From assembly GCA_963765675.1 (NCBI GenBank), contig CAVXXK010000001.1, forward strand, positions 27,485 through 91,484: a DNA stretch of 64,000 nucleotides. Reading direction: 5' to 3'. The DNA comes from an uncultured delta proteobacterium. Lineage in GTDB: Bacteria; Desulfobacterota; Binatia; Binatales; Binataceae. Positions 10,976 to 64,000 of this stretch are shown here, one piece after another. The notes under the pieces are model-generated. The model made no database searches and had not been told where the DNA came from. It saw only the letters and a program-made list of their open reading frames with translations. The position numbers and the translations under genes were made by a program. The stretch's first letter is position 1. Every line of letters begins with the position of its first letter.

Positions 10976-10989
10976 GCGCCAACGGCAAC

Positions 10990-12549
10990 GTGACCACCTA
11001 CACTTACGATCCGATGGATCGCCGCGCATCAAGGACCGATGCGCTGGGCGCCGTGGAGAGCTACGCCTACGACGGAATGAGTAACCTTACCAGCCACACG
11101 GATCGCAATGGGAACGTAACCAGCTACAGCTACGACGGGCTGAACCGCAGGACGTTTGCGGGTTTTGGATACAACGGCAGCGGGTATCAGAGCACGATTA
11201 ACTATACGTGGGACGGGGGCGACCGCCTGACGCAGGTGGTGGATTCAATTGCGGGAACCATCTCGCGGACTTACGACGGGCTCGACGACCTGACCGACGA
11301 GCAGACGCCGACGGGCGAGGTCAGCTACGCGTATGACAACGCGAGGAGGCGGACGTCGATGACGGTGGTGGGGCAGCCTGCGGCGGCCTCCTACGCGTGG
11401 GACAACGCCAACCGATTGACCGGAATTACCCAGGGGAGCGCGTCGGTTGCGTTCAATTATGACAGCGCGAGCCGAAGGACTACGCTGACGCTGCCCAACG
11501 GGATCGAGGTGGGGTATAGTTACGACAACAACTCGCGGATAAGCGGGATGACCTGGACGTTGGCCGGCAACCAGATCGGAGACCTCGAGTACGATTACGA
11601 TGCGGATGGGCGCGTGGTCGAGAAGACGGGGAGCCTCGCGCAGACCAACCTGCCGCAGCCGGTGACCGGAAATACCTTCAATGCCGATAACGAGATGACG
11701 GCGTTCAACGGCACTCCGATGACTTACGACGCAAACGGCAACCTGCTCAACGATGGGAGCAACGCCTACGCTTGGGATGCGCGCAATCATCTGAGCGCGA
11801 TCAGCGGTGCGAATGCAGCCAGTTTCGTCTATGACCCGTTGGGGCGGCGGATCAGCAAGACTATCGGGAGTACGACGACGAGCTTCCTGTACGATGGGCT
11901 CAACCCAGTACAGGAACTTCAATCGGGCGCGCCGAGCGCGAACATGCTGACGGGGCTCGGGATCGACGAATACTTCCAGCGCAGCGATGCCTCGGGTGCG
12001 AGCAGCTACCTGACAGATGCGCTGGGCAGCACGCTGGCGCTCGCAAACCCGGCGGGCGGCTTAGCGACCAGCTATACGTATGATCCGTTTGGGACCACTG
12101 CGGTGTCGGGTTCGGGTACAAATCCCTTCCAGTTCACCGGCCGAGAAAATGACCTCAACGGTCTTTATTATTTGCGTGCCCGTTACTACAACCCAGCGTT
12201 GCAGCGATTCCTGAGTCAGGATCCCATAGGAGTCCGAGGCGGGATGAATCTTTATGGCTATGTCGGAAATAACCCTGTAAACTCTTTCGATTTGTTGGGA
12301 TTGGGCGGTACACCCTCGACGACGCCCACGCCGACCAGTTGTCCAACGCCGATTCCCGTGGATCCAACCCAGGCACCAACAACATGCCAAAAGCACCTAG
12401 CCTGTGAAATAGGATGGGAGGGCACATGTGACCAGTGCAACGAATTCGAGAATCCCCAGCCGGTATTTGTTTGTCACGTTGGCTGTGTCATTACAGGGGC
12501 GGTAGTATGCGAGATTGAGTTTCCCTGCAGCCTCCGGGGTAATGACTGA
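10990..12549 (+). CDS. Rhs/YD-repeat protein fragment (5'-truncated): YD repeats, RHS core end (…DPxGL) and an ~80-aa Pro/Thr-linker plus Cys-rich C-terminal tip
   Basis: Repeated YDxxGR/NxxSYxYD motifs and the core signature …GLYYLRARYYNPALQRFLSQDPIGVRGGMNLYGYVGNNPVNSFDLLGL. The C-terminal tip reads GGTPSTTPTPTSCPTPIPVDPTQAPTTCQKHLACEIGWEGTCDQCNEFENPQPVFVCHVGCVITGAVVCEIEFPCSLRGND. The reading frame opens at 10900 inside DR1 and has no N-terminal Rhs region. The first in-frame start is the GTG at 10990. Confidence 0.85.
   Translation: MTTYTYDPMDRRASRTDALGAVESYAYDGMSNLTSHTDRNGNVTSYSYDGLNRRTFAGFGYNGSGYQSTINYTWDGGDRLTQVVDSIAGTISRTYDGLDDLTDEQTPTGEVSYAYDNARRRTSMTVVGQPAAASYAWDNANRLTGITQGSASVAFNYDSASRRTTLTLPNGIEVGYSYDNNSRISGMTWTLAGNQIGDLEYDYDADGRVVEKTGSLAQTNLPQPVTGNTFNADNEMTAFNGTPMTYDANGNLLNDGSNAYAWDARNHLSAISGANAASFVYDPLGRRISKTIGSTTTSFLYDGLNPVQELQSGAPSANMLTGLGIDEYFQRSDASGASSYLTDALGSTLALANPAGGLATSYTYDPFGTTAVSGSGTNPFQFTGRENDLNGLYYLRARYYNPALQRFLSQDPIGVRGGMNLYGYVGNNPVNSFDLLGLGGTPSTTPTPTSCPTPIPVDPTQAPTTCQKHLACEIGWEGTCDQCNEFENPQPVFVCHVGCVITGAVVCEIEFPCSLRGND
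11150..12075 (+). repeat. Internal direct repeat (Rhs core-encoding segment), copy 1
   Basis: ~925 bp at ~90% identity to 13603-14525. Similarity ends at …GCGACCAGCTA (protein …LATSY). Confidence 0.8.
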
Positions 12550-12734
12550 TTGAGTATAGGCTCCTACCAGCAGACGCTATCCATGGCTATCACACGAAAG
12601 CAGTATTACTAAGAGGTGGCTTGCCGTTTCCCATAGATGGGCACGAGTGATTAGCAACTATCAAGTGCTAAGTTGTTTATGAGAATAGATCTCGTAAGTA
12701 TTAGTGGTTGTAAACGTAGCTTATAGGCATTGAA

Positions 12735-13151
12735 ATGCGGGGTGAGAAGAAATATGTCGGCAAGCATGTAGCACTTTTCATTGGTGTAGTGTACGCGATT
12801 ATCTGGTATCGAATTCCATATATAGCGGCTGGAGAAGGCTGGCTTAGTGTCTACTTGCCAGCCATTTCTCTGCTATTTGCGGTAATGCTCGTGCTCACGC
12901 TCTATTCCGATGACACGCCATGGTTGAATCTGACATACTTTTTCCCGGGCGTGATCATCGGCGTATCTATCGATACTCTAGTGTTCCACAGCAAGGCCTC
13001 GAGAATTGCGTGGCTATTCGAATCCCTAAGCCTTTGCGTGTTTCTAGCACCGATCGCTGTTTTGGCGACAGCGCTTGGTCGCTGGATTAGCAGGAGACGG
13101 AAAAGGCCTGGCAATGAAATTCCTGTTCATGATGAAAGCGAGACTCCATGA
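12735..13151 (+). CDS. Small multi-pass membrane protein in a low-GC segment; candidate Rhs immunity protein 1
   Basis: 138 aa, 3-4 hydrophobic helices. The GC content is markedly lower than the genome. It lies immediately downstream of the Rhs tip. No recognisable domain. Confidence 0.4.
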   Translation: MRGEKKYVGKHVALFIGVVYAIIWYRIPYIAAGEGWLSVYLPAISLLFAVMLVLTLYSDDTPWLNLTYFFPGVIIGVSIDTLVFHSKASRIAWLFESLSLCVFLAPIAVLATALGRWISRRRKRPGNEIPVHDESETP

Positions 13152-13602
13152 GATCGGCGGGGGAACGGAGTGATCATCCTCCAGTGCGTTGACAAAGCAA
13201 GCGAGAAGGTTCGACCGGTGCGCGTACGCGACTGGCGATCACACTATACGTTAGAAGCCTAGGGCGGACGGTGAACGGTTACGATCTCGTCGAGATGTTC
13301 TCTGAGGTTGGTAAAGTCCTGAGTTCGCAGATCATCTATGACCGCAAGACGAATCGTTCGCGGGGATTTGGCTTTCTCTTCGCGATCCGTTTTCTCGCGG
13401 CGTTTTCTCTGGTTGCTCTCGTGAGACCCAGCGATATCATTCGAAGTTGGAGATACCGTCCAGGCGATCCGCTCTGAGAAGGAACTCGTAGCAGTCGTGG
13501 TGCGCTCGAGAAGCACCCTGGCTAGCGAAACATGTTCCGGCGAATAATGCTAGGGTTCGACGGTCTTCCAGAACGGGTTAGAAAATATTCCTTACAAACT
13601 CA

Positions 13603-14525
13603 CAGTTGCATTCGGCTACAACGGGAGCGGCTATCAGAGCACGATCGGCTACACCTGGGACGGGGGTGACCGTCTGACGCAGGTGGTCGATTCAATTGCG
13701 GGAACGATCGCGCGGACCTATGACGGGCTCGACGACCTGACCGACGAGCAGACGCCGCCGGGCGAGGTCAGCTACGGGTATGACAACGCGAGGCGGCGGA
13801 CGTCGATGACTGTTGTGGGGCAACCTGCGGCGGCATCATACGCGTGGGACAACGCGAACCGGCTGACCGGAATTACCCAAGGGAGCGCTTCGGTTGCGTT
13901 CAATTATGACAGCGCGAGCCGAAGGACAACGCTGACGCTGCCCAACGGAATTGTGGTGGCGTATAGTTATGATAAAGATTCGCGGGTAAGCGCGATGACC
14001 TGGACGTTGGCTGGCAACCAGATTGGAGACCTCGAGTACGATTACGATCCGGACGGACGCGTGATCGAGAAGACGGGGAGCATGGCGGCGACCAATCTGC
14101 CGCAGCCGGTGACTGGAAACGCCTTCAATGCGGACAACGAGATGACGGCGTTCAACGGTACCGCGTTGAGCTACGATCCGAACGGCAACCTGCTCAACGA
14201 TGGGAGCAACACCTACGCCTGGGACACGCGCAATCATCTGAGCGCGATCACGGGCGCAAATACCGCGAGCTTCGTCTATGACCCGTTCGGGCGGCGGATG
14301 AGCAAGACGATTGGAGGAGCGGCGACGAGTTTCCTCTACGACGGCCTAAATCCCGTGCAAGAGCTTCAAGCTGGAACGCCGAGTGCAAACATGTTTACGG
14401 GACTGGGGATCGACGAATACTTTCAGCGTACCGACGCCTCGGGTGCGAGCAGTTATCTCACAGATGCGCTCGGCAGCACACTCGCATTGGCAAACTCGGC
14501 AGGCAGCCTCGCGACCAGCTACAAC
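13603..14525 (+). repeat. Internal direct repeat (Rhs core-encoding segment), copy 2
   Basis: See 11150-12075. Confidence 0.8.
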
Positions 14526-14672
14526 AAGGCCTTGGTTAGCTGTCTTGAAGGTTTGCGTGACGATCCGCACAACTGGCCTTTCCCGCCGGATCCAAGTGAC
14601 GATCCGGGAGACATTGGCGCACATGAGTATAGAGAAGGCGCAATCTATATATTCCAGCATGGGGTGTGGTGA
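13683..14672 (+). CDS. Second Rhs/YD-repeat fragment (truncated at both ends; no RHS core end; short divergent tail)
   Basis: The frame opens at ~13549 with no start until the ATG at 13683. Its protein is ~90% identical to residues ~60-360 of fragment 1 up to …LATSY. It then diverges into NKALVSCLEGLRDDPHNWPFPPDPSDDPGDIGAHEYREGAIYIFQHGVW*. This is probably a recombinational remnant (pseudogene-like). Confidence 0.7.
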   Translation: MVDSIAGTIARTYDGLDDLTDEQTPPGEVSYGYDNARRRTSMTVVGQPAAASYAWDNANRLTGITQGSASVAFNYDSASRRTTLTLPNGIVVAYSYDKDSRVSAMTWTLAGNQIGDLEYDYDPDGRVIEKTGSMAATNLPQPVTGNAFNADNEMTAFNGTALSYDPNGNLLNDGSNTYAWDTRNHLSAITGANTASFVYDPFGRRMSKTIGGAATSFLYDGLNPVQELQAGTPSANMFTGLGIDEYFQRTDASGASSYLTDALGSTLALANSAGSLATSYNKALVSCLEGLRDDPHNWPFPPDPSDDPGDIGAHEYREGAIYIFQHGVW

Positions 14673-16503: not shown

Positions 16504-18165
16504 ATGAGCGCAATCACGGTTTTTCAGGCACGCAAGATCATCACGATGGATCCGGGCCGCCCGGCCGCGGACTCTATCGCGGTCAGAGACGGCCGAATCG
16601 TGTCGGTTGGCACGCGCGACTCGATCGGACCGTGGTTGCGGCGTTATGAACACGTATTCGACGACTCTTTCGCCGACCGGATCATCGTGCCGGGTTTCAT
16701 CGATCCGCATACTCACTTGAGCCAATCAGGCGGTTACATGCTGCTCAACTACGTCGGTCCGATACCGTCTCCGGGAGCCGAAGGAATAAATCCCGCGCTC
16801 CCGACTCGCGAGGCGGTGTGCAATCGGCTGCGCGAGCTGGATTTGGAGTTGAAGGATCCGGACGAGCCGCTGTTCGCCTGGGGCTACGACGCCGCGATGC
16901 AGGGTGGTCATCTGGATCGCGGCGCGCTCGACACGATCTCGAGCGAACGTCCGGTCTCGGTGCTCTCGTACGCACCGCACTTTGTGTACACGAACAGCGC
17001 GATGCTGCGGCTATTGGGGGCGACGCCGGAACTCAAGATTCACGGCGTCGGACGAACCGATGACGGGCGACTCAATGGTGTCTTCACCGAGATCGAGGCA
17101 ATCGGATATGCACTGGCGCCATTTCACGGAAAAATTCTGCGGCCCGAGCAGGCGCGGCAGGGACTTCGGCGGCTGGCTGACGTCGCCAAAGCCGCGGGCG
17201 TCACCACCACCGCCGATATGCTGTTCGGGATGAGAAATTTCGAATCCGAGTGGCGGACTCATCAAGAGGTCGTTGGCAACGAGTCGTTTCCGCTGCGGAT
17301 GCTGCTGGTGCCGTGGGAGGCGCCGATTCGAGAAAAGTTCGCCGCAGACCCAGGCTCATTCATGTCCGACCTCGAATCACGCGCGAGTGAGAAGCTTCGC
17401 TTTCACGGGGTCAAGTTTTTCAGCGACGGATCGTATCCTTCGATGTCGCTGCGGCTGAAGTACCCGGGTTATCTCGACGGCGGCAATGGACTGCGCGCCG
17501 ACATCCCATGGGATCAGCTCGCGCAGCGGATGTTGCCGTTCTGGAAAGCGGGCGTGCAAATTCATGCTCACGCCAACGGCGACGAAGCGATCGAGGCAGT
17601 GCTCGACGCACTTGCGCGCCTGCAATCAATCCATCCGCGCTTCGACCATCGCTTCACCATCGAGCATTACTGCATCAGCTCCCCCGACCAGGCCAGACGG
17701 CTGAAAGCGCTCGGCGGCCTCGCCAGCGTCAATCCATATTTCGTCCACTATCGAAGCCAACTTCATAGCGAGCACGGATTTGGGCCCGACCGCTCCGAGG
17801 CGACCGCGCGCCTGGGCTCGCTCGAACGCGAGGGGGTTATCTTCGCGCTGCATTCCGACTTCTCGCTCGTGGTGGCGCCGATACATCCATTGACGGCCGT
17901 CTGGATCGCGGTAAATCGAATCGCCGCTGATGGAACGACGGTCCAGGCGCCGGGCGAACGTATCGGAGTGGAGCGGGCATTTCGCGCGATCACGATCGAT
18001 GCGGCCTATGTGCTGGGGCTCGAACGCGAGCTCGGGAGCCTCGAAGCCGGCAAGCTCGCTGACTTCACGATCCTTGATGATGATCCGTTCACCTGCGACG
18101 TCAAATCGATTCACGAAATAGGGATTTGGGGCACGGTCCTGGCCGGCCGCAAACAACCGGCCTGA
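16504..18165 (+). CDS. Amidohydrolase family protein (Amidohydro_3-type metal-dependent hydrolase)
   Basis: 553 aa. …IVPGFIDPHTHLSQSGG… is the HxH metal-binding motif. It has C-terminal …HSDFSL… and …AVNR… regions typical of the family. Confidence 0.8.
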   Translation: MSAITVFQARKIITMDPGRPAADSIAVRDGRIVSVGTRDSIGPWLRRYEHVFDDSFADRIIVPGFIDPHTHLSQSGGYMLLNYVGPIPSPGAEGINPALPTREAVCNRLRELDLELKDPDEPLFAWGYDAAMQGGHLDRGALDTISSERPVSVLSYAPHFVYTNSAMLRLLGATPELKIHGVGRTDDGRLNGVFTEIEAIGYALAPFHGKILRPEQARQGLRRLADVAKAAGVTTTADMLFGMRNFESEWRTHQEVVGNESFPLRMLLVPWEAPIREKFAADPGSFMSDLESRASEKLRFHGVKFFSDGSYPSMSLRLKYPGYLDGGNGLRADIPWDQLAQRMLPFWKAGVQIHAHANGDEAIEAVLDALARLQSIHPRFDHRFTIEHYCISSPDQARRLKALGGLASVNPYFVHYRSQLHSEHGFGPDRSEATARLGSLEREGVIFALHSDFSLVVAPIHPLTAVWIAVNRIAADGTTVQAPGERIGVERAFRAITIDAAYVLGLERELGSLEAGKLADFTILDDDPFTCDVKSIHEIGIWGTVLAGRKQPA

Positions 18166-30209: not shown

Positions 30210-30971
30210 ATGGACGACACGCCACCTGCTCCTTCGCCTCGCACGACCGGCGAGCTAATTGCTCCGACCGCAATCGCATCCGACGCGCCCCAGAGCGACC
30301 ACCGGACCGCATTGACCCGCGAGTCGATTGTGCGCTTCGGCGAGCAAATCATTTTCGTCACGGCGGTCGTCGGCGCGGTGGCGCTCGGGCTCGGTATCAC
30401 CGACTACTTTCGCGACCACCGGTACATCTCGGCCTATCTGATCGCGTACATCGGATTTCGTTTTGCGGAACTGATGGTCGGCGAGGATCCGCGGCATCCG
30501 GCCGAGGCTGCCCAGGCGCACGCGCAGCGCATCCAGACCCAGATCGCGGTGCTGATATTGTTTGCGGCCGCTCCGTTCGAGCGGACCTATCTATACGGCG
30601 GCGACCCGGAGAAATGGGTTGGCGCACTTGGACTGTTGCTCGAGCTTGGCGGCCTGTGGCTCGCGCTGGGAGCGCGTATCCAGTTGCATTTTTTTTCGTC
30701 CGACAAAAGCGGACGCGAACGGATGATCCTCGTAAAGACCGGATTTTTCCGCTACGTGCGCCATCCGGTTTACGCCGGCGTGCTGCTGGTGATGCTCGCG
30801 TGGCCGCTCGTGTTTGCGGCGCCGATCGTCGCGATCGCGACGCTGGCCGTGGGACTCACTATCGCGCGGCGTCAAATTCGCGCCGACGAAGCGATTCTGG
30901 CCGCGCGCTTTGGCAAAGAGTTCGAGGAATACTGTCACACGACGGACGCGCTCATCCCGAGCATCTGGTGA
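30210..30971 (+). CDS. Isoprenylcysteine carboxyl methyltransferase (ICMT) / phospholipid methyltransferase (PEMT) family membrane protein
   Basis: C-terminal …ERMILVKTGFFRYVRHPVYAGVLLVMLAWPLVF… and …EEAILAARFGKEFEEY… are ICMT/PEMT signature regions. It has an ~55-aa hydrophilic N-terminal extension followed by multiple TM helices. Confidence 0.75.
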   Translation: MDDTPPAPSPRTTGELIAPTAIASDAPQSDHRTALTRESIVRFGEQIIFVTAVVGAVALGLGITDYFRDHRYISAYLIAYIGFRFAELMVGEDPRHPAEAAQAHAQRIQTQIAVLILFAAAPFERTYLYGGDPEKWVGALGLLLELGGLWLALGARIQLHFFSSDKSGRERMILVKTGFFRYVRHPVYAGVLLVMLAWPLVFAAPIVAIATLAVGLTIARRQIRADEAILAARFGKEFEEYCHTTDALIPSIW

Positions 30972-54136: not shown

Positions 54137-55432
54137 TTATCTGAGTGCTCCCCGGTAGCTCAGTCGGTAGAGCAGACGGCTGTTAACCGTCGGGTCGCTG
54201 GTTCGAATCCGGCCCGGGGAGCCAATCCTAAGTGATTGATATTCCAAGCTTTTGTTATCGCTCTGGGACAAAGCAGTAGATCCGTTAGCAGGCGACTGTG
54301 TGGACTTTTGTGGGGACCCGCTCCTTGGACCGGAATGATCCACCGTTACGTCCGGTTCAAGCGTTGCGATCGCATCGCGGCGCGCCTGCACGCGAATGTG
54401 CGCATACCGACCGAGCATTCGCGGACTGACGTGCCCAGCCAGTTGACGAATCGTTTCCTCCGAGACGGTCGGATTCTCCGCGAGCCGGGTAACGAACGTA
54501 TGGCGGGCGTCGTAAAAACGGATGTTGACGCCCGCCTTCGCGCGAGCGGTATCGAACGCCGTCCGATAGCTCGAATAACTCATGGGCCGGTCGGCATTAA
54601 CGCCATAGATGTGCGGGATGCGGTCGTTTCCTGCGATTGCGACATGATGGAACGGGAACACAAACGATTCTGGATTGGCGTCCGGAAAATGCGACAGCCA
54701 GAGCGTCAGCGCGGCGCAGGCTCGTTGGGTCAGTGGGATCATGCGACCGGTTCCCGCCTCCGTCTTCGAGCGTCCAACTACGATTTCACCCTTGGCGATC
54801 ACGGCATCGCGCCATTCAAGCAGAAGACTCGAGCGGCGCAGCGCGCGAGTCTCGGACGGCCGCAGGCCGGCGTCGATCGAAAGAACGAAGAAGGGATATA
54901 GCGAAGCCGAGCGGCTTTGCCTGATCGCATCAAGCAGCCGCTGCTCATCTTCTCGGCTAAGTGCCTGGCCCACATCCGATCGCTGACGTAACATCCTGAC
55001 GCGACCAGAGATGTGGGACCAAATACCGAAGTGGCGAAGTATCGCGCGAAGCGTGCCGACTTCGGCATTGATCTGGCGCCCGGAAAGCCCCTCAGCTTGG
55101 CGTTTGCGCTGAAGGTCCGCAACATCATCAGCCGAAAAGTCGGTAACCAGCCGGCTCCCAAACTGGCGTGAAAGCTTCGCGATGTATTGCCGGTAATAAC
55201 GTTCCCCCAGAGGTGAGAGGCCGGTCTTGGATTGAAACCATTGGCGCGCTGCCGCCGAGAAGAGCGGTCTTTCCCGTTTCGTCAGACCGTTAACGCCGAG
55301 TTCGAGATCGCGTCGGCGGGCAAGCTCCGCCTGACGGGCAATTGTCTTCGAGTCGGTGCGTGTGCTCTCTCGAATTCGAGCGCCGTCGAATTCAAACTCG
55401 AACCACCAAATATTTCCTCGCTTGTAGAGCAT
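54137..55432 (-). CDS. Tyrosine-type site-specific recombinase/integrase (tRNA-Asn-associated)
   Basis: MLYKRGNIWWFEFEFDGARIRESTRTDSKT… is an integrase SAM-like N-domain. The catalytic region reads …LRPSE…R…YDARHTFVTRL…HVSPRMLGRYAHI… (R…HxxR…Y). The ORF has no stop before it reads through the tRNA 3' half, so the true 3' end is probably earlier. Confidence 0.85.
   Translation of the reverse strand: MLYKRGNIWWFEFEFDGARIRESTRTDSKTIARQAELARRRDLELGVNGLTKRERPLFSAAARQWFQSKTGLSPLGERYYRQYIAKLSRQFGSRLVTDFSADDVADLQRKRQAEGLSGRQINAEVGTLRAILRHFGIWSHISGRVRMLRQRSDVGQALSREDEQRLLDAIRQSRSASLYPFFVLSIDAGLRPSETRALRRSSLLLEWRDAVIAKGEIVVGRSKTEAGTGRMIPLTQRACAALTLWLSHFPDANPESFVFPFHHVAIAGNDRIPHIYGVNADRPMSYSSYRTAFDTARAKAGVNIRFYDARHTFVTRLAENPTVSEETIRQLAGHVSPRMLGRYAHIRVQARRDAIATLEPDVTVDHSGPRSGSPQKSTQSPANGSTALSQSDNKSLEYQSLRIGSPGRIRTSDPTVNSRLLYRLSYRGALR
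54149..54224 (+). tRNA. tRNA-Asn (anticodon GTT)
   Basis: 76 nt. Acceptor TCCCCGG/CCGGGGA, D-arm GCTC-AGTCGGTA-GAGC, anticodon arm GACGG-CTGTTAA-CCGTC (GTT), T-arm GCTGG-TTCGAAT-CCGGC, discriminator G plus CCA. Confidence 0.92.
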
Positions 55433-55539
55433 GGCGTCACCTGTTTTTCGCGATCCGGGTGGATCGCTCCGCCCTGAGGTCACGGGATTTTAGGATGAAG
55501 GAAATGATTCTCGGAGAGCATCGGGTTAAAGCATTTCGG

Positions 55540-55773
55540 TTAATGCACGCTGCTTGCCTCAGCGACGTAACGGCGGACTTCGGGATCTAGCACGACGACT
55601 CGACGGCCAAAATGGGCGGCTCGCAGGTGGCCGCGCTTGATCTCAAGACGCAGGAAGGGAACCGAGACGCTCAGGCTCTGAGCCAGATCGTTGAGGGTCC
55701 ACCCCAGTTTCGGAGCAACGTGCCGGGCGGCGTCGGAATTGGATGGGATTGGAGAATTGGTATGAACAAACAT
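55540..55773 (-). CDS. AlpA/excisionase-family helix-turn-helix DNA-binding protein
   Basis: …LNDLAQSLSVSVPFLRLEIKRGHLRAAHFGRRVVVLDPEVRRYV… It lies between the integrase and relaxase genes. Confidence 0.7.
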   Translation of the reverse strand: MFVHTNSPIPSNSDAARHVAPKLGWTLNDLAQSLSVSVPFLRLEIKRGHLRAAHFGRRVVVLDPEVRRYVAEASSVH

Positions 55774-56000
55774 GATGACAAAAAACCTCGGAGATTGCTT
55801 TCACCGGACGGAAAGAGCGTTTCAGTGGAGTTACTAGCTACATAGCTATATCCACGCATTATGTCAAGCCCCGCTGCACCAGGTCGCGCGTGCGAACCGC
55901 GATGGCAGGGAACGGCACGCGACTGTCCGCGCCCGCGTCCCGAAGGGAAGGGCGCTCCGATACCTGCTTGGGTGCGCAGCATTTTGAAAGCGCCGCCCTC

Positions 56001-58985
56001 TCAACCGAGTCTGGAGGGCGGCGCAGGATTCTGAGACGCGTGTGGCGGAGCGTAGCAACCGTGCCGAGCGCAGCGTCCGGCGCGGGTGCCGGCGGCGCGG
56101 TTGCCCGCGGAGCGCGCGCCACCTTTACAGCGGCGCGAAGCGGAGCGCGAGGCGTGCGATGCACGCCGTGTCCGAGCGGCGAAGCTTGCGGAGCCCGAGC
56201 GTCCGCGCTCATAGCGAAGCGCCGATGAAAAAATGATTCGACGACAGCGTTCGGCAAGACCAGTCACCTTCTGATGCCGTGGGCAGGGGTGATGCTCTGG
56301 CGCGGCGGTTCTGGAACCATCTTGAGGTCTCGCGCCCAGGTTTAGGTTGAGCCGTTCCAGGGCGATCGACTTTTCGCGGTTGCGGCCGACCGCGTGCCGG
56401 AGGGCGGAACTGTCGTCGGTGTAGACGGTGACCCCGTGGCGCGCGCGGCTGATCGAGACGTAAAACTGTTTGCGGTTCACGAGTTCAGCCGAGCGAGCGG
56501 TATCGATGTTGACGATGACGCGGTCGACCGTCGCGCCCTGGCTGGAATGCGAAGTCGAGGCGTAACCGTAGTCGATGTGGCGGAGCCGACTGGCCGCGGC
56601 TTTGACTTCGCGCCCGTCGTCCATCCGCAGCGCGGCCTTTCGGTCGTCGATTGCAACGACCGTCGCAAAATCTCCGTTCGCGACGCCGAGCGCGCGGTCG
56701 GGTGCGCGGAACTGGATGCGGTCGCCCTTGGCGATGACTCTGCGCTCCTCGCGGAACAGATCGACGCCGGTGAGCCGCGCTGGGTTGTATTCAACTGCTC
56801 GACCGTCTTCGGTGCGCACGGTGATCCGGTTGAGATCCGAGTCTGTACTCTCGACTCGTGCGTACGTGTCCTTGCCGAGCCCAAGATGGCGGCTGCCACG
56901 GCGGTAGCGAATCACGTCGCCAACTTCGTAACTCTGAGCGCGCTGGCGCTGTGCGGTGGTTAGGTTGCGGTTGACGAGGATGATCTGCTCTTTCCCTTCG
57001 GCGCCGACATGGGAGCGCTGCTTCAGGAGTTCGCGAATGGCGGAGTTGAGTTGCCGGCGCTCGTCGTTGGCAGGACTGACGACCAATACGCGCTCTCCGG
57101 CCTCGTGCGCGGTGACGTATTCCTGTGCGATGGATTTATATCGCGCATCAGGATTGTCGATCTCGCGGATGCGGTCATGCTGCTCGAGCAGCGCGAGCGC
57201 GCGATCGATCTCTCCTTTGGCCGCAAGCTCCACTGCTTCGCGAAGGATAGGGTCCCGCTGGCGGCGAATCGTGTCCAGCCGCGCCACCGCATCCCGGCCT
57301 GCTGCATCTGGTGGATCGGGTCGTCCCGCCTCGATCGCATGGTGCTGATGCTGGTCGCCGACGAACACGATCCGTTCCACGCCTGCGTCGCGGGCCTGAT
57401 GAAGGAGGCGGTTGACCTGGCGCGTCGCGAGCAAACTCGACTCATCGACGATCCATAATTCCTGACGGCCAGAAGCGGAGATTTTATTTTCGATCAGACT
57501 TGCCACGGTTCGGGACTCGACTCCGGCTTCGGATAGCGCCTTGACCGCGCGCGTGGTCGGAGCAAAGCCGCGCACGGCGTAGCCGTGCTCTTCGGCGAAC
57601 TCGCGGATCGCTCCGACCGTGGTGGTCTTCGCGCTGCCGGCGCGGCCTTCGATCGAGGTGAGCCAGTCGGGCGTCGTGAGGATAAGTTGCGCGACTTCGA
57701 TTTGATCGGCGAACAATCCTCGGTCCGTTGCCCATCGGCGAATCTCTGTGTCATTCGCGATGGGCAGAATTTGGCCTTGGCCCGCGCGCATCAGGTCGAG
57801 GTTATCGCGCTCAAGGGCGAGCATCTCGGAAGTGGTGAAGGTGCCGCCCGGTGAGGCGATGGAAGCGTCCAGGACGATCAGCGCGCGGCGTTGTTCCCAA
57901 GCCATGCCCTCGCGGCGCAACTGGTCGAGATCAATTACTCCCATCGCGTGCTGGAGGGCGGTTGCTTCGAGCGCGCGACGGTCGATCACCGCCTCGCGCT
58001 CGGTGCTGTGCGCCACGGCGAAGCGAAGCGCCTCCTCGATCCTTGCCTGGGTGGAGACCCGAACGGCGGCCTGGGTGTGGGAATGGCCCTCGAAGCGGAT
58101 TCCGTAATCTCGCGCGCGCATGCGCCACTCCTCGCGAAGCTCGCCCTCGTCGCGCTGCTGCTTTGAGAGCCGGCTCTGATGAGCGATATTCTGCGCCGCG
58201 GCCGCTCCGCTGAGGCCGTTTCGCGCGAGCGTCTGCTCGATGTCCCGGCGGCGGCGCGAGAACGCCATCACCTGTTCTCGGCTATAACCTTCGAGCTCCC
58301 AGCGTCCATCGCCGCCGGTAACCGTGATGCCGTAGCCAAGTGAACGTACTTCGCGAGCCAGCTCGGAGCGATAAACCGCGCTGGCGAAGCTCTGTGAGCG
58401 ATAGATCTCGACCGGGTCGAGCCCACGCCATGCGCCGTCGGGCCGGCGAGTCATGTTGGCGATGACGACGTGGGTGTGGAGATGCGGATCGGGACCGTAG
58501 CCGTCATCTGCACCTTTGGCTGGACGCGCCGCGATATGGTCGAAACGCGCGGCGACGATGTTCCGGGTGAGTACCCATTCGCTGCCGCCCTTCTGACGCG
58601 ACAGCGCGTAATGCTCCAGCTCCGTCAGCGCGGTGCTGACCGCGCGGCGATGCGCATCGGTCAATCCGGCGTCTCCACCCGCCAGCGCCTGAATGCTGAC
58701 CGACTTGGGCGCGTTGAAGGTCGCGTCCCATCCCGCGCGGCGTTCGGTTCGTCCATTGGCGTTGCGGACGAGAACTTCGGCAGTGCCCGGCTGTTGGCCG
58801 CGAAGTATCGCGCGAAAATCTTCGGGAGCGACTTCGTCAGAGAGCCCGAGTGCGTCGGCGCCCTGCCCGAACCATTGACCGACGACTCGATGTTCTTCGG
58901 TGTAGTAATCGTCCTGCGAGTACTTCTCTTCGTAGTAGGTCTCGGCCTGACCGGCGCTGAGCGCCCCGCTCGACATGACCAGCAT
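56001..58985 (-). CDS. Conjugative relaxase-helicase, MobF family (TrwC/TraI-like)
   Basis: N-terminal …AETYYEEKYSQDDYY…NAPKSVSIQALAGGD…HLHTHVVIANMT… is the 3-His relaxase motif. The central/C-terminal RecD-like helicase carries the Walker A motif GRAGSAKTT. The ORF tail beyond ~residue 850 is low-complexity. Confidence 0.9.
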   Translation of the reverse strand: MLVMSSGALSAGQAETYYEEKYSQDDYYTEEHRVVGQWFGQGADALGLSDEVAPEDFRAILRGQQPGTAEVLVRNANGRTERRAGWDATFNAPKSVSIQALAGGDAGLTDAHRRAVSTALTELEHYALSRQKGGSEWVLTRNIVAARFDHIAARPAKGADDGYGPDPHLHTHVVIANMTRRPDGAWRGLDPVEIYRSQSFASAVYRSELAREVRSLGYGITVTGGDGRWELEGYSREQVMAFSRRRRDIEQTLARNGLSGAAAAQNIAHQSRLSKQQRDEGELREEWRMRARDYGIRFEGHSHTQAAVRVSTQARIEEALRFAVAHSTEREAVIDRRALEATALQHAMGVIDLDQLRREGMAWEQRRALIVLDASIASPGGTFTTSEMLALERDNLDLMRAGQGQILPIANDTEIRRWATDRGLFADQIEVAQLILTTPDWLTSIEGRAGSAKTTTVGAIREFAEEHGYAVRGFAPTTRAVKALSEAGVESRTVASLIENKISASGRQELWIVDESSLLATRQVNRLLHQARDAGVERIVFVGDQHQHHAIEAGRPDPPDAAGRDAVARLDTIRRQRDPILREAVELAAKGEIDRALALLEQHDRIREIDNPDARYKSIAQEYVTAHEAGERVLVVSPANDERRQLNSAIRELLKQRSHVGAEGKEQIILVNRNLTTAQRQRAQSYEVGDVIRYRRGSRHLGLGKDTYARVESTDSDLNRITVRTEDGRAVEYNPARLTGVDLFREERRVIAKGDRIQFRAPDRALGVANGDFATVVAIDDRKAALRMDDGREVKAAASRLRHIDYGYASTSHSSQGATVDRVIVNIDTARSAELVNRKQFYVSISRARHGVTVYTDDSSALRHAVGRNREKSIALERLNLNLGARPQDGSRTAAPEHHPCPRHQKVTGLAERCRRIIFSSALRYERGRSGSASFAARTRRASHASRSASRRCKGGARSAGNRAAGTRAGRCARHGCYAPPHASQNPAPPSRLG

Positions 58986-58988
58986 GAC

Positions 58989-60800
58989 TCATGCCCTCAA
59001 TCTGCGGGGAGGACGTGGCGGTCGCGGGCCGCCGCTTCCCGGCGGCACAAGGAGCGGCCCGCTGCTGTCGTTTGGCGAGTCCGGCGGCAAGTCAGCGGGT
59101 TCAGTCCGGCAGATGAACCCCGGATGACGCCGGAGCGGCGCGAGATACGGAATCGTGACTTTCGCTCGACGGTAGCCGGTGATGCAGAGATAACCCTCGA
59201 ACGGGCGCAGCATCTGAACCTCACTCGCGAGCGCGACGCTCTCCACCTGCCGATGCGGGTGGATAGTAAAGCCGTCGCGGGAGTCGCCCAGCCGGGTGCT
59301 CTGACCGACGAGACCTCGGCTGACTTCGCGCTCACCGATCTGCGCACTCGACCACCGCGCGGTCTCGGCCTCGCCGGTACGCAGGATCAGCTTGGTGGCG
59401 GGCGCGGCGGCCAGAGTTGCGGTCTGGTCGTGCCCGTAGATGGCGCGAAGCTGGGTGATGGCTTGAAGGCCCAGCACCGCGCAGAGCCCGCGCTTGCGTC
59501 CGCGCACCACCAGCGTTTCGAGCTCGGCCTGACGGCGGAGCACGGGCAGCTCGTCGGCGATGATCCAGACTTTGCCGCGTGATCCGTCGTCGGTCATCAG
59601 ACGTCGCACGATGCAATCTAGCCAGACGCTCTGGAGCGGCAGCGCCGCCTCGCGCGAGTCCTCGGTTGAGCTGAGAAACAGCCACCCCTCACGGGTTCGC
59701 GCCCATTCGAGCGCGCTCCAGGCGTGGACGGCGGATCGCGGAAGATGCCGAAACGAACTGGTCGCGTTGAACGCCGTCGCGACGATTCCGGCGCCCTGCT
59801 CGTGCGCGCCTGGATCGATGAGGACCTCGGCGGGAGTCCCTCGGAGCGCTTCCTTCAGCTTGGCGCGGGGCAGCGCGAGCAGCTTCGGAAGCTCGCCCGG
59901 TTCCCTGGACTTGGCCGCGTCGAGCAGGCCGACGATGAGCGTGCGGGCCGACTGCCGGAAGAAGAAGTCGGCGCCGCCCTGACCGAAGGTATTCGCCGGG
60001 TCGGGAACCAGCGCCGCCGCGAGCGCTTCGGCGTCCATCGCCTCGCTTCCGGGTCTGAGCTCCGACCATGGTGTCCACGCCGGGCAGCGGGTATCGAGCG
60101 GGTTGAGGATCAGATCGCCGCGCTCGGGCCGGAAGAACTCAGGCAGGTACTCGCACTCGGGATCGAGCACGACCGCACTCTCTCCGCGTGCTTCGATCTG
60201 CCGGAGCATCCGCCGGATCGCGGTGGACTTGCCCGAGCCGGGCGCGCCGACCAACAGAAAGTGTTGCGACTCCAGCGCGCGGGGAATCAAGACGCCGCCG
60301 AGTTCGACGCCGTCGCCGCTTAAGTCCCGGCGCAACCGCCGGCTCGGGATTACATCGGTCCCGCGCACGTACTCGTCTTCATCTCCTGCGCCACGGGGCG
60401 GAAAGATGATCAGGAGGCAGGCTCCGACTATCAGAGCGGTGATGACCGCGCCCCAAGGTGCATAATGCCAGAACCAGCCCGCGAACGAGCCGCCGAGGTA
60501 GTACCTGCGGTTGAGGAAGTCGTACATGCTGGCGATGGTGTAGCGCTGGCCGCGGTACGGCAGTGACGCGAACGTTAGTAGAATCTCCTGGGTTAGAAAC
60601 CACGCCAGGAACCATCTCACGAAGTACCGGTGCGCCGCGGTCCCGCCGTAGTGGCCAGTCCAGTACCAGACCAGCGCAACCGTCAAAAGCGCCCACAGAA
60701 GCGCGATGAGGAGCACCGCGCGGAGCGCCGTTTGCGCCCAGACATGCAGCGATGCGAGGTCGGCGCGTCGTCTGACCGCCCGATCAACATATGCGTTCAT
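58989..60800 (-). CDS. Type IV coupling protein (TraD/TrwB/VirD4 family)
   Basis: N-terminal TM helices. Walker A …FLLVGAPGSGKSTAIRRML…. Walker B …VWIIADELPVL…. The start ATG overlaps the upstream stop (ATGA). Confidence 0.88.
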   Translation of the reverse strand: MNAYVDRAVRRRADLASLHVWAQTALRAVLLIALLWALLTVALVWYWTGHYGGTAAHRYFVRWFLAWFLTQEILLTFASLPYRGQRYTIASMYDFLNRRYYLGGSFAGWFWHYAPWGAVITALIVGACLLIIFPPRGAGDEDEYVRGTDVIPSRRLRRDLSGDGVELGGVLIPRALESQHFLLVGAPGSGKSTAIRRMLRQIEARGESAVVLDPECEYLPEFFRPERGDLILNPLDTRCPAWTPWSELRPGSEAMDAEALAAALVPDPANTFGQGGADFFFRQSARTLIVGLLDAAKSREPGELPKLLALPRAKLKEALRGTPAEVLIDPGAHEQGAGIVATAFNATSSFRHLPRSAVHAWSALEWARTREGWLFLSSTEDSREAALPLQSVWLDCIVRRLMTDDGSRGKVWIIADELPVLRRQAELETLVVRGRKRGLCAVLGLQAITQLRAIYGHDQTATLAAAPATKLILRTGEAETARWSSAQIGEREVSRGLVGQSTRLGDSRDGFTIHPHRQVESVALASEVQMLRPFEGYLCITGYRRAKVTIPYLAPLRRHPGFICRTEPADLPPDSPNDSSGPLLVPPGSGGPRPPRPPRRLRA

Positions 60801-61176
60801 TGCCTAATACCTCCGTCGCCTCCGAGGCGGTCGATGTAGTCGCGCGCGGCCTTCTCCGACGCCTCGATGATCTCGTCCACCGCAGACTCGCTCAGGCTCT
60901 GGTCGAGCGCGTGCAGGAACGCCGAGCGAGTCTTCACCACCTCGAATAACAGCCGCGTGAATCTCTCCGAGCGTTCTGTTCGAGCCGTTCGCAGGCTTTG
61001 CTGAGTGCGGCGGAGCCGCCAACTGCTGTTTCGGCGAGGTGCATGTACGTATCGACGACCAGCGACTGAATCAGCGTGGTCGGCGATAAGCCTGAACTTG
61101 CCGCCTGCTTTTCGACTCGCGCGGCGAGCGTCTCAGGCAGCCTGATCGTGTAGGTTCTCTTGCTCTCCTGGCTCAT
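60797..61176 (-). pseudogene. TrwA-like relaxosome accessory protein (ribbon-helix-helix), frame interrupted near 60985-61000
   Basis: The N-terminal frame MSQESKRTYTIRLPETLAARVEKQAASSGLSPTTLIQSLV… is an RHH fold, then terminates. A second frame with no start codon continues …FTRLLFEVVKTRSAFLHALDQSLSESAVDEIIEASEKAARDYIDRLGGDGGIRQ* and ends in ATGA overlap with the T4CP start. This implies a single-nt indel. Confidence 0.6.
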
Positions 61177-61415
61177 CTGACTGGACCTCCGCGCTGCAAG
61201 CATCTGTTTGCAATGGAAAATCAAGGGTTTCCGACGGTTCGCTGATTCGCTTCCACGTCTGTGTACACGTCGCGAAGCACGCGTTTACGCTGAAAGATCG
61301 CGGGCTTTTCTCCATCTCCGTACTCGTTGCTGCAAGCAGGCTTCATTCGCGAATGAGTGACGTGTCATCAACTCACACGCGCAAAGCGCGTCTGCGCATT
61401 TGGTACTGCTGCGAG

Positions 61416-61691
61416 TCAGCCTTGTGACTTGGCGTCGCCGTTGGACAAAGAGGAACTGGGGCGGCGATGATGACTGCCGCCGCCGCTGGAACGTGACCAG
61501 GTCTGGAACTCACGGTCAGCTTGCAGGAAGGCACTGAGAATCTCCGGAATCAGCGCCTTCGAATCCACGGCGTCGCCGTGAACGTGCTCGTAGTAGCGCG
61601 CGTAGCCCTCGAGCGCGGCATTCAGGTCGCCGGCCAGCGTCACGCGCACCTGTAGGGAACGAAGCGGCTTTGCGATGCGTGCGAGTTTCAT
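61416..61691 (-). CDS. DUF2274 domain protein (ICE-associated)
   Basis: MKLARIAKPLRSLQVRVTLAGDLNAALEGYARYYEHVHGDAVDSKALIPEILSAFLQADREF… is the characteristic DUF2274 found beside T4SS genes in ICEs. Confidence 0.75.
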   Translation of the reverse strand: MKLARIAKPLRSLQVRVTLAGDLNAALEGYARYYEHVHGDAVDSKALIPEILSAFLQADREFQTWSRSSGGGSHHRRPSSSLSNGDAKSQG

Positions 61692-61728
61692 ATCGGACCT
61701 CCATTAATGGTTACTCGGAAAGGACTGC

Positions 61729-62058
61729 TCAGAAGGGCGCGAGGTAAGTCAGCAAATGGACCGCAATCAGCGCGGCCCAAGCTGCTACTCCGCCAGCCAG
61801 CAGGCGCCCTGCTCGCGGGTAGCTGCCGATCGCGTACAAGATCGCCGACAGCGCGAAGTTCAGCGCTATCGCGGCGTGAGCCACGGGGCCGACCAGGATG
61901 CCTTGAATCGCGCCGAGCGTCTGGTCCCATGGCATGGCACCGGCGTATTGTGCGGCCCACGATGGCTCGGCTCGAAGCGCGAACAGCGCGGCGGCACAGG
62001 CGGCGATGAGCCATCTGACGTTCGATTTCGGCGCTTGCTTTACTGCGACTGGGATCAT
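61729..62058 (-). CDS. TrbC/VirB2-family T4SS pilin-like protein
   Basis: 109 aa. Signal-like N-terminus …WLIAACAAALFALRAEPSWAAQ…, then two hydrophobic segments (…ILVGPVAHAAIALNFALSAILYAIG…, …AAWAALIAVHLL…). Confidence 0.55.
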   Translation of the reverse strand: MIPVAVKQAPKSNVRWLIAACAAALFALRAEPSWAAQYAGAMPWDQTLGAIQGILVGPVAHAAIALNFALSAILYAIGSYPRAGRLLAGGVAAWAALIAVHLLTYLAPF

Positions 62059-62169
62059 GGGGAGTACTTTTGCGTGGCTACGTGACTAGCTCGCTATGTA
62101 GCGAGATATCGGACGAGTGTCAAGCGTGAAGATCGATCAGCGCGAAACGGTCGGGAGCTTGTTGGCGGG

Positions 62170-62836
62170 CTACTCGGTCAGATAGCCGAGCTGGGAGAGC
62201 CGCACGGTGGCGGCTTCGACGGATACATCGAACGCAAGCGAAATACGCTGGCAGAGCGCTGACGCTTCAGGCGATCCCTTGGCCACCGGCGGGCGCTCAG
62301 AGCGATTCTGGAAATAAGCCTCGACCGCGCGCCGCGCGAAGCTCTCCGGCATCAGCAAGGCACCCGAGGCATAGCCCGCCTGCCATTCAAACCAGTCAAC
62401 GACCGCGCTCGGTCGGAAGCAGGCTCTGCCAGTAACAGCGGTGCGGACTGCGGGCAGCGCCGTACTTGTCGTACAGCCAAGCGTGGAGCATCACGTGGCC
62501 ATATTCGTGGGTCAGGGTCGTGCGCAACCGGTTGTTACGATGCCGTTGCTCCCACAGTTCCCGCGCGATTGTGACCCGCGGCTTTCGGCCGCGCTCGAAC
62601 TGGGTGAAACCAAAGACCTCGTGAATGTCATCGGAAAGATCCGTCGCCAAGTCGAGGTCGGCGGCGTCACGCTCGATCAGCATCGTGACCGCCTCGGTCG
62701 GCACCGGGATGCGTTCAAATCCGAAGTGCTGGCGCAGAAAGGAGGTGATCGTCTCCTCGCACATCTGCTCAAGCTCGCCGATCTCCCAGTGCGGACGCTC
62801 CGGAAAGCGCCCGGTCCTGTCCGGTATCATCTTCAC
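62170..62836 (-). pseudogene. ImmA/IrrE-family metallopeptidase (HEXXH), frame interrupted by a 1-nt insertion near 62420-62460
   Basis: …LTHEYGHVMLHAWLYDKYGAA… contains the HEXXH motif, then the frame is lost. The +1 frame continues …AVVDWFEWQAGYASGALLMPESFARRAVEAYFQ…VEAATVRLSQLGYLTE (track ORF 62170-62358). Confidence 0.7.
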
Positions 62837-63156
62837 GGCTTCTTCCTGCGCTTTACTTCCCGCCGGAACGCCTTCCAGCCTGCGGCGAGTTCCTGCGCAC
62901 TGTTGACGGTCGTCGCGCTGAGGTCGGCTGGAAACCGCCCTGCCAGAAAGTAGAGCACATCCGAATCGACCTTGAGAACCTTGGCGAGTTGTTCAAGGAC
63001 TTCGTCGGAAGGCTTGCGCCGGTCGTGTTCGAGGTCAACCAGGAACGGAATCGAGATCGGCTTGCCATCGGAGTTGCGCACCTCCGCCACCACCTCGCGT
63101 CCCGCCAACCCCAGCTCCTTGCGCCGCTCAACGATGAACTGTCCGAGTGTCTGCAT
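62833..63156 (-). CDS. XRE-family HTH transcriptional regulator (ImmR-like repressor partner of ImmA)
   Basis: MQTLGQFIVERRKELGLAGREVVAEVRNSDGKPISIPFLVDLEHDRRKPSDEVLEQLAKVL… is an HTH_XRE. It overlaps the immA start by 4 nt (ATGA-type coupling). Confidence 0.75.
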   Translation of the reverse strand: MQTLGQFIVERRKELGLAGREVVAEVRNSDGKPISIPFLVDLEHDRRKPSDEVLEQLAKVLKVDSDVLYFLAGRFPADLSATTVNSAQELAAGWKAFRREVKRRKKP

Positions 63157-63279
63157 TAATAGCTATGTAGCATAATGGAATGTGATTAGGAAGATATGCT
63201 GCTCACATCATCCTCTTGCCGTAAGTGTGACACAACTATTCGACTTTTAAACAGTCTCCGCTCCGCTTTGTCTCAAAAC

Positions 63280-63375
63280 CTAATTCTTCTTTTTCCTCTT
63301 CTTTCTTTTCTCCCCCTCCCCCCTCTCCCCCCCTCACCCCCTCCCCCCCCCTCTCCCCCCCGGAGATCTCCCCGA
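63280..63375. repeat. ~95-nt polypyrimidine (C/T) tract with multiple C5-C8 runs (poly-G on the transcribed minus strand)
   Basis: CCTAATTCTTCTTTTTCCTCTTCTTTCTTTTCTCCCCCTCCCCCCTCTCCCCCCCTCACCCCCTCCCCCCCCTCTCCCCCCCGGAG contains only three purines. It explains the spurious Pro-rich +strand ORF 63196-63408. Confidence 0.9.
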
Positions 63376-63565
63376 TCCGGTGCTTGTCACGTTGCGTCTA
63401 AACATTGAGGTATGGAAGGTTGGCCGGACCCCGTCGCGCGTCGGACGACCCGACGTGCATCAATTGTGGCAGCAGCGCGTATCCCATTGCTGAACAAGCT
63501 GGCCGATCGGTCATCGAGTTTCGTTGAAGCCGCTCGCGCAGAGAATTTCGCACAATATCGGCTCC

Positions 63566-63579
63566 CCCCCCCCCCCATA
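63566..63579. repeat. C14 homopolymer (G14 on minus strand) in the immR-upstream intergenic region
   Basis: GGCTCCCCCCCCCCCCCCATATAT. Confidence 0.9.
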
Positions 63580-63581
63580 TA

Positions 63582-63941
63582 TCAGGCCAGGTTCCATCGA
63601 CATTGGATTTCCTGACTGTTCAAGACGTCGATCACGCGCACTGGTTCGCCGAGATCGCTCCATTCGCATCCGTGAACCGGAAGGACCGCAAGATTCGTCG
63701 GACGCCTCGCCAAAACGTCCCGTGAAAAGTCCGTGTCATAGGAAGCGTACAGGATCTCGACGAATCGCTCCTCCGAGCTGGTCAGGAGTGCTCGACTTAC
63801 GCGTGCGAAGGAGCGGTAGAGTTCCGGCGCCGATACCATGATAAGTCCCAAGAGCGTGGACAAACCAGCCACCATCACGAAGCTATTCCAGAGGCACGCG
63901 CGCTCCAGAAGTGTTTTGGCCAACTTCGGCGACGGTTTCAC
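63582..63941 (-). CDS. Hypothetical protein (within the ICE, upstream of immR)
   Basis: 119-aa ORF with one hydrophobic helix (…FVMVAGLSTLLGLIMVSAP…). No recognisable domain. Confidence 0.3.
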   Translation of the reverse strand: MKPSPKLAKTLLERACLWNSFVMVAGLSTLLGLIMVSAPELYRSFARVSRALLTSSEERFVEILYASYDTDFSRDVLARRPTNLAVLPVHGCEWSDLGEPVRVIDVLNSQEIQCRWNLA

Positions 63942-64000
63942 ATCGCGAATGCCGGTATAATCCGCACCTACAGCCGGCCCCGGTTCGATCCAGCCGTAGG

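Follow-up and report, generated by a model that had tools for sequence, protein, structure and literature searches.

What is the long pyrimidine tract that lies between an integrative mobilizable element and its host chromosome in an uncultured Binataceae genome, and does it control the element together with a nearby homopolymer of C? Both sequences were analysed within a stretch of 64,000 nt (the window, to which all positions refer unless another locus is named). The initial annotation had assigned them to the control region of an ImmR/ImmA operon and proposed a switch, in which slippage or formation of a G-quadruplex (G4) or i-motif in the tract or the homopolymer sets expression of the XRE and ImmA genes and thereby gates excision and transfer of the element.

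On the plus strand, two runs consisting of C and T only, 63284-63335 (52 nt) and 63337-63361 (25 nt), are split by a lone A at position 63336 and together form a tract of 78 nt (63284-63361; 50 C, 27 T, 1 A, 0 G) with the C runs C5, C6, C7, C5, C9 and C7. The annotated 95-nt polypyrimidine tract is therefore present, at a length of 78 nt with one A under a strict C/T-only definition; the best 90-nt segment is 93% pyrimidine, and the figure of 95 nt thus applies loosely. The homopolymer, recorded as C14 at 63566-63579, was found to be C13 at 63564-63576 (G13 on the minus strand). As the genes in this region are all encoded on the minus strand, the polypurine/polypyrimidine tract, delimited by composition and run statistics, reads G/A-rich in gene sense, with a gradient between a G-rich half (~63312-63361) and an A-rich half (~63284-63311). 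TRF resolved imperfect tandem repeats with unit lengths of 8, 10 and 18 nt and 2.7-4.6 copies, a sub-structure that fits slippage. No minus-strand ORF of at least 40 aa crosses the tract; the sole ORF across it, on the plus strand at 63196-63408, is proline-rich and was judged spurious.

Both features lie far beyond chance, and the earlier description of the stretch as highly unusual was well founded. Outside the tract, the longest stretch of pure purine or pure pyrimidine in the window measures 15 nt, and in 100 shuffles of the window the longest pure run averaged 16 nt with a maximum of 21 nt; for runs of at least 52 nt, the expected number is ~2e-11. Apart from the C13, the window holds just one homopolymer of at least 7 nt, a T8 at 30689. 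A scan of ~830 kb from related Binataceae and other loci turned up a single C/T run of 25 nt and a single G9.

The mobilizable element (54242..63176, minus strand, ~9 kb) adjoins a tRNA-Asn gene and encodes an XRE protein, an HExxH protein, a TrbC-like pilin, a DUF2274 protein, an RHH protein, a TrwB-type coupling protein, a MobF/TrwC relaxase and a tyrosine integrase. At its end facing the tract stands the intact gene of the XRE-family HTH repressor (62833..63156, minus strand, 107 aa), with sub-threshold matches to HTH_3 and HTH_31 and identical protein copies on three JGI metagenome contigs. The long tract is located 128-205 nt upstream of the XRE ATG (63156), on the XRE sense strand, and to this extent the annotated position upstream of immR is correct. 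The C13 lies ~410 nt from the same ATG and 5 nt past the stop codon of an NTP-transferase gene, within the first codons of a dead, degenerate universal-stress-protein (USP) gene of the host and not in the XRE leader to which it had been assigned. The tract is separated from the conserved XRE module by an A/T-rich spacer of 107 nt (63177..63283), for which no match was found in the window, the fetched loci or a JGI metagenome scan.

Proteins identical or nearly identical to this XRE are encoded on many contigs. For comparison, 13 other copies of the element were used, from JGI metagenomes (L001-L003), ENA assemblies (L088-L090, L094-L099) and an NCBI Binataceae MAG (L100). Each of the 13 shows 82-95% nucleotide similarity to the window, ending at 63174-63176, and the shared DNA before the XRE ATG comprises the last 20 nt only. 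Beyond this point the DNA differs from copy to copy, with some copies sharing upstream variants of their own for 60-130 nt, and purine or pyrimidine runs of 20-22 nt or G/C runs of 8 nt near XRE were found in none of the 13. The placement of tract and homopolymer in the control region of the repressor operon is not supported by these copies, and on the same grounds the tract was rejected as a part of the XRE promoter. The element is widespread in Binataceae metagenome assemblies, where it occurs in many different genomic contexts, and its XRE-proximal end exists in several sequence variants (L088-L090, L094-L100).

The last sequence common to all other copies is the 10-mer GCTACATAGC (63162..63171, minus strand), which lies 6-15 nt ahead of the XRE ATG. 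The window contains exactly three occurrences of this motif, always in intergenic DNA of the element, the second one (62093..62102, minus strand) being upstream of the trbC-like gene and the third (55837..55846, plus strand) between the relaxase gene and the xis/integrase region. GCTACATAGC was found at equivalent places in other copies (L001, L088, L090 and others); a search of unrelated loci totalling ~898 kb gave zero occurrences. The motif is probably an operator of the XRE repressor; given such a putative operator, we infer that the control region of the element is compact and self-contained and does not involve the tract.

The partner gene in the proposed switch, a HExxH metalloprotease-like gene regarded as ImmA-like (62170..62836, minus strand), overlaps the XRE gene by 4 nt. 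When intact it encodes 221 aa; comparison with four intact homologues shows that the gene is frameshifted in the window, with 1 nt inserted at ~62405. The protein has an HExxH motif and a SprT-like match below threshold only, and even the intact 221-aa homologue gave no match to ImmA/IrrE (PF06114) or to an NCBIfam model; it is not recognisable as an ImmA by these models. With this gene frameshifted, an ImmA-dependent switch would probably be broken here. The gene has been inactivated repeatedly: it is split into separate ORFs in L094 and L096, and three tyrosine-recombinase genes are inserted into it in L095 and L100, at the equivalent of 62496/62497 of the window. In L003, homology to the window is also lost at 62496.

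In ICEBs1, ImmR and ImmA constitute a repressor and anti-repressor module. The arrangement here is similar in that an XRE gene is followed by a HExxH gene with a 4-nt overlap at one end of an integrative element, and in that a repeated operator-like motif precedes transfer genes and integrase genes. It differs in the protease-like protein, which is outside the ImmA/IrrE models and frameshifted, and in the type of element, a mobilizable element of ~9 kb that encodes a MobF relaxase and a coupling protein of the TrwB type, instead of an ICEBs1-type ICE.

A switch of the proposed kind would be consistent with the position of the tract upstream of XRE on its sense strand, with the high G4 potential described below, and with the intrinsic tendency of long G/C runs to slip during replication. 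It is opposed by the absence of the tract from all 13 other copies, by conserved control DNA that ends 20 nt before the ATG and contains a motif of its own, and by the state of the partner gene. In addition, no sigma-70-like promoter was found in 62800-64000, and the C13 belongs to a dead gene that needs two reading frames whatever the length of the run. We consider the switch extremely improbable; a bearing of the tract on control of the mobile element is, on present sequence evidence, not supported.

The position of the C13 directs attention to the host side of the junction. The first part of a USP gene is retained there as a pseudogene 5' stump (63365..63578, minus strand), colinear with the first ~200 nt of an intact tandem-USP gene in the relative L004, which matches PF00582 (Usp, 6.6e-57) and follows the same NTP_transferase gene. 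No fewer than two reading frames are required to translate the stump, which breaks off at about codon 68, at the G-rich tract; its USP homology ends 3 nt short of the tract. A tblastn search of the window with the USP protein missed the stump because of its frameshifts, and homology was instead demonstrated at the DNA level, with a local alignment score against the L004 gene of 28 versus 9.4 ± 1.3 (maximum 17) for shuffles, and of 37 versus 19.2 ± 2.2 under a second scoring scheme. The C13/G13 run (63564..63576; G13 on the minus strand) has as its first G that of the stump ATG and represents an 11-nt insertion at codon 2 relative to homologues (ATGGCGG-CGATATT in the homologues, ATGGGGGGGGGGGGGAGCCGATATT in the window). 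A G run at the USP start was absent from all relatives compared, and a degenerate scan for the junction of NTP-transferase and USP genes returned four relatives, 0/4 with a G run or tract. Two further origins were rejected for the DNA next to the stump: the tract or the A/T-rich spacer (63177-63361) as a corrupted continuation of USP, for which no alignment scored above shuffles, and the spacer as a copy of the integrase-side end of the element or as carrier of an att repeat, for which scores equalled those of shuffles.

The adjoining NTP_transferase gene (sugar-phosphate nucleotidyltransferase; 3' part at 63582..64000, minus strand, stop codon 63584-63582) is a Binataceae host gene with 76-77% identity to Binataceae MAGs, and its full-length counterpart in L004 matches PF00483. 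In the source record it is represented by a C-terminal half of 176 aa (P0281), compared to 350 aa in L004. Relative to L011, it is 95% identical over 63822-64000 and ~65-75% identical further on; this drop suggests a recombination breakpoint inside the gene. With a truncated USP gene, a half-length NTP_transferase gene and a mobile element around it, the tract is situated in a zone of gene decay.

Comparison of relatives identifies the USP start as a rearrangement hotspot. The gene is intact in L004; L005, L011, L084 and L087 diverge after ATGGCG(G/A)CGA(T), within the first 10-18 nt of USP, and L085 and L086 keep a frameshifted USP stump of ~130 nt. The G13 of the window lies within a few bases of the rearrangement point in the four diverging relatives. 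Serine-recombinase genes were noticed ~100-400 nt past the truncated USP start of L084 (read by eye, without a family library) and beside the element in L099 (6778-8463 of that locus; Pfam Resolvase/Recombinase), and from these occurrences other integrating elements may use the same hotspots.

Homopolymers at such positions recall contingency loci, which include the poly-C tracts of fim promoters in Bordetella and the 5'-terminal poly-G tracts of genes in Neisseria, Haemophilus and Campylobacter. The likeness consists of a 13-nt G/C run right after a start codon and of long C runs upstream of a regulator gene. In contrast to contingency loci, the run belongs to a pseudogene that is truncated and has multiple frameshifts, the tract is outside the conserved promoter/operator DNA with no recognisable -35/-10 elements around it, and the relatives have neither a homologous tract nor length polymorphism. 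A contingency locus has its repeat within the coding frame or core promoter of a gene that is functional, and neither the C13 nor the tract is so placed.

At the opposite end of the element, next to the integrase gene, lies the tRNA-Asn gene (54149-54224, plus strand). The integrase ORF (54137-55483, minus strand) reads through the entire tRNA-Asn gene on the opposite strand, and the last ~30 codons thus come from the integration site. To the left of the tRNA gene, the DNA is ordinary Binataceae chromosome (a heme-synthesis operon, a DUF748 protein and others), 91% identical over 11.2 kb to the relative L091, which is part of a 1.88-Mb contig; the ten host genes at 43-54 kb are all intact, and their coding indels relative to L091 are nearly all multiples of three. 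After its own tRNA-Asn, L091 carries a 112-nt scar of the integrase end of the element (tRNA-Asn and scar at 10986-11173). The 3' half of the tRNA is repeated directly over 52 nt at a distance of 5.8 kb (16834-16885), where it bounds a PqiA/MlaD island. The scar and the repeat characterize tRNA-Asn as a recurrent integration site.

An element that targets a tRNA gene is expected to be bounded distally by a direct repeat of the tRNA 3' end. This repeat is seen in L091 (52 nt); neither right of the element in the window nor upstream of XRE in the other copies was a repeat of the tRNA-Asn 3' half found, and an attR of this form was rejected. With the repeat missing at the far end, the junction, as judged from its sequence, is not a simple integration product.

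We favour a reading, to which we assign a probability of about one half, in which the tract is genuine slippage-prone filler in a decayed recombination junction, with a predicted capacity for G4 formation and no function demonstrated. The junction would join the XRE end of the MobF-type element, on the left, to the stump of the host USP pseudogene, on the right. Short C-rich units (CCCCCTCC, CCCCCCTCTC) would have arisen at the breakpoints and would then have grown by replication slippage in DNA free of selection. In support of such filler, the tract adjoins the end of USP homology and the G13 sits at codon 2 of the dead USP gene. Against it, the growth from GGCGGCG to G13 together with a new tract of 78 nt is unusually large for a bacterial genome, and slippage is inferred in a setting where neither the G13 nor the tract is present in any relative.

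The principal competitor of the filler reading is an artefact of assembly or base calling at a weak or strain-variable join, or at least an error in run lengths, with the true sequence being ordinary or rearranged. The junction is known from a single contig of 2.44 Mb, and no second assembly of it was found in the collections searched: exact-protein look-ups of two local ORFs gave no independent copy, a 22-mer adjoining the tract had 0 matches in the JGI metagenome scan, a part of the tract had 0 matches in a viral-contig scan, and a plasmid megablast gave no match. The nearest relatives are Nanopore-only Flye assemblies with one Medaka polish (PMC12313526), and the source assembly is probably Nanopore as well. 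Homopolymers of more than 10 nt are rare in bacteria, and in R10.4 Nanopore consensus sequence homopolymers are reliable only below 11 nt, a length that the C13 exceeds (PMC9262707); if this limit of the probable chemistry applies, the run lengths reported here are untrustworthy. Both anomalies are found at synteny breakpoints, the att repeat is absent at the junction, and the element, as a repeat common to many genomes in the samples, is prone to mis-joins.

Several observations stand against an artefact. The flanks are of high quality, with an XRE protein identical to independent JGI proteins and with intact host genes, and a comparable tract is absent from loci totalling ~300 kb in assemblies of the same type. 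No similarity to Illumina, ONT or PacBio adapters was detected, and adapter contamination was rejected with best local scores within the range of shuffled adapters. A fold-back repeat is absent; the purine-only composition, the gradient from A to G and the tandem units are unlike a poly-G dark-cycle artefact; and the 185 nt of additional DNA do not fit a mis-join through the element, which would leave the junction clean. We regard an artefact as unlikely, although it is to be taken seriously, and put the chance that the tract is real DNA at about two in three. The caveat that the homopolymers may be assembly artefacts was apt. In practice the tract serves chiefly as a warning that long homopolymers and low-complexity DNA in long-read MAGs require confirmation at the level of reads before interpretation.

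As sequence, the tract is an extreme case of known simple sequence prone to non-B DNA, its biology being unproven, and in principle it could form a G-quadruplex, an i-motif or a triplex. With the canonical G4 criterion of at least four G runs of at least 3 nt and loops of 1-7 nt, two motifs were found on the minus strand, at 63312-63341 and 63343-63361, and these are the only two in the window. The mean G4Hunter score over 63296-63379 is -2.12 (plus-strand sign), and the minimum free energy computed for the RNA drops from -22 to -85.7 kcal/mol once G-quadruplexes are permitted; the annotated G4 potential of the G-rich strand is thus borne out and extreme in silico. The tract also includes a mirror repeat (63327-63361) whose 14-nt arms contain one mismatch and are 4-5 nt apart; it is compatible with H-DNA (triplex), in agreement with the potential proposed earlier for such a structure. 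H-DNA-forming polypurine/polypyrimidine mirror repeats are characteristic of eukaryotic genomes. This tract shares with them the purine/pyrimidine asymmetry and the mirror repeat, from which a triplex is predicted, and differs in being bacterial. An Rfam search of 61000-64000 on both strands gave no match with E up to 1.

Structures of this type may also have been a cause of the rearrangements. In such a scenario, a real G4- or H-DNA-forming tract would have helped to cause them as a fragile site, by stalling replication or by R-loop/G-loop formation. It would agree with the extreme G4 potential and the mirror repeat, with the location of both G runs on the same strand and at breakpoints (63361/63362, where USP is truncated, and the hotspot at the USP start shared with L005, L011, L084 and L087), and with read-through from the NTP-transferase side, which leaves the G-rich strand as the non-template strand. 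A positional coincidence derived from sequence cannot separate cause from consequence, however, and relatives are rearranged at the same USP site without G runs, which shows that the hotspot does not need them. We consider a fragile site quite improbable. Very improbable is also a combination of the two ideas, in which G-rich filler would be laid down or expanded specifically at hotspot breakpoints and would then, as a fragile site, drive more rearrangement beside the element; if it were true, genome instability associated with G4 would have a bacterial counterpart in such breakpoint filler.

A proven example of a G4 with a role in recombination is that associated with pilE in Neisseria gonorrhoeae, a 16-nt sequence that initiates recombination for pilin antigenic variation. 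Both there and here a G4-forming sequence is placed beside a recombination site, with the G-rich strand as the non-template strand for transcription of a neighbouring gene. The pilE sequence is short, precisely conserved and genetically proven, whereas the present tract is 78 nt long, irregular, predicted to form a G4 and known from one contig. G4 motifs have also been reported in or near pathogenicity islands and near the tRNA insertion sites of genomic islands, as a statistical and correlative association (PMC10942614) that is in line with a fragile site, and the tract at the edge of an element beside tRNA-Asn would be a far stronger G4 candidate of this kind; unlike that survey, the present case is one locus of one uncultured Binataceae genome, and its tract is much longer and purer.

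The composition of the tract (50 C, 27 T, 0 G in 78 nt) would also be suited to a transcriptional insulator, with C/U-rich RNA from the plus strand as a loading site for Rho, or a G4 in RNA from the minus strand, stopping read-through between host and element. In line with this, no intrinsic terminator was found in the 425 nt that separate the stop codon of the NTP-transferase gene from XRE. Composition by itself is the argument, however; no plus-strand gene reads into the tract, as the element genes are all on the minus strand, and the tract is present in no other copy or relative. An insulator is in our view scarcely credible.

If the tract is real DNA, it is among the longest and purest G4- or triplex-prone stretches reported in a bacterial chromosome, and its position at a rearrangement junction could make it a natural test case for non-B DNA and bacterial genome instability. 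The by-products of the analysis probably have more to offer than the tract itself: a mobilizable element of ~9 kb that is widespread in Binataceae, its conserved GCTACATAGC motif, and a protease-like gene in it that has been inactivated repeatedly.

Elsewhere in the window, ORFs with RHS repeats at 10990-14672 coincide with its lowest G+C content (0.51-0.56). This coincidence points to an acquired toxin cassette; in L090, RHS/YD-shell genes are likewise found on the flanks of the element.
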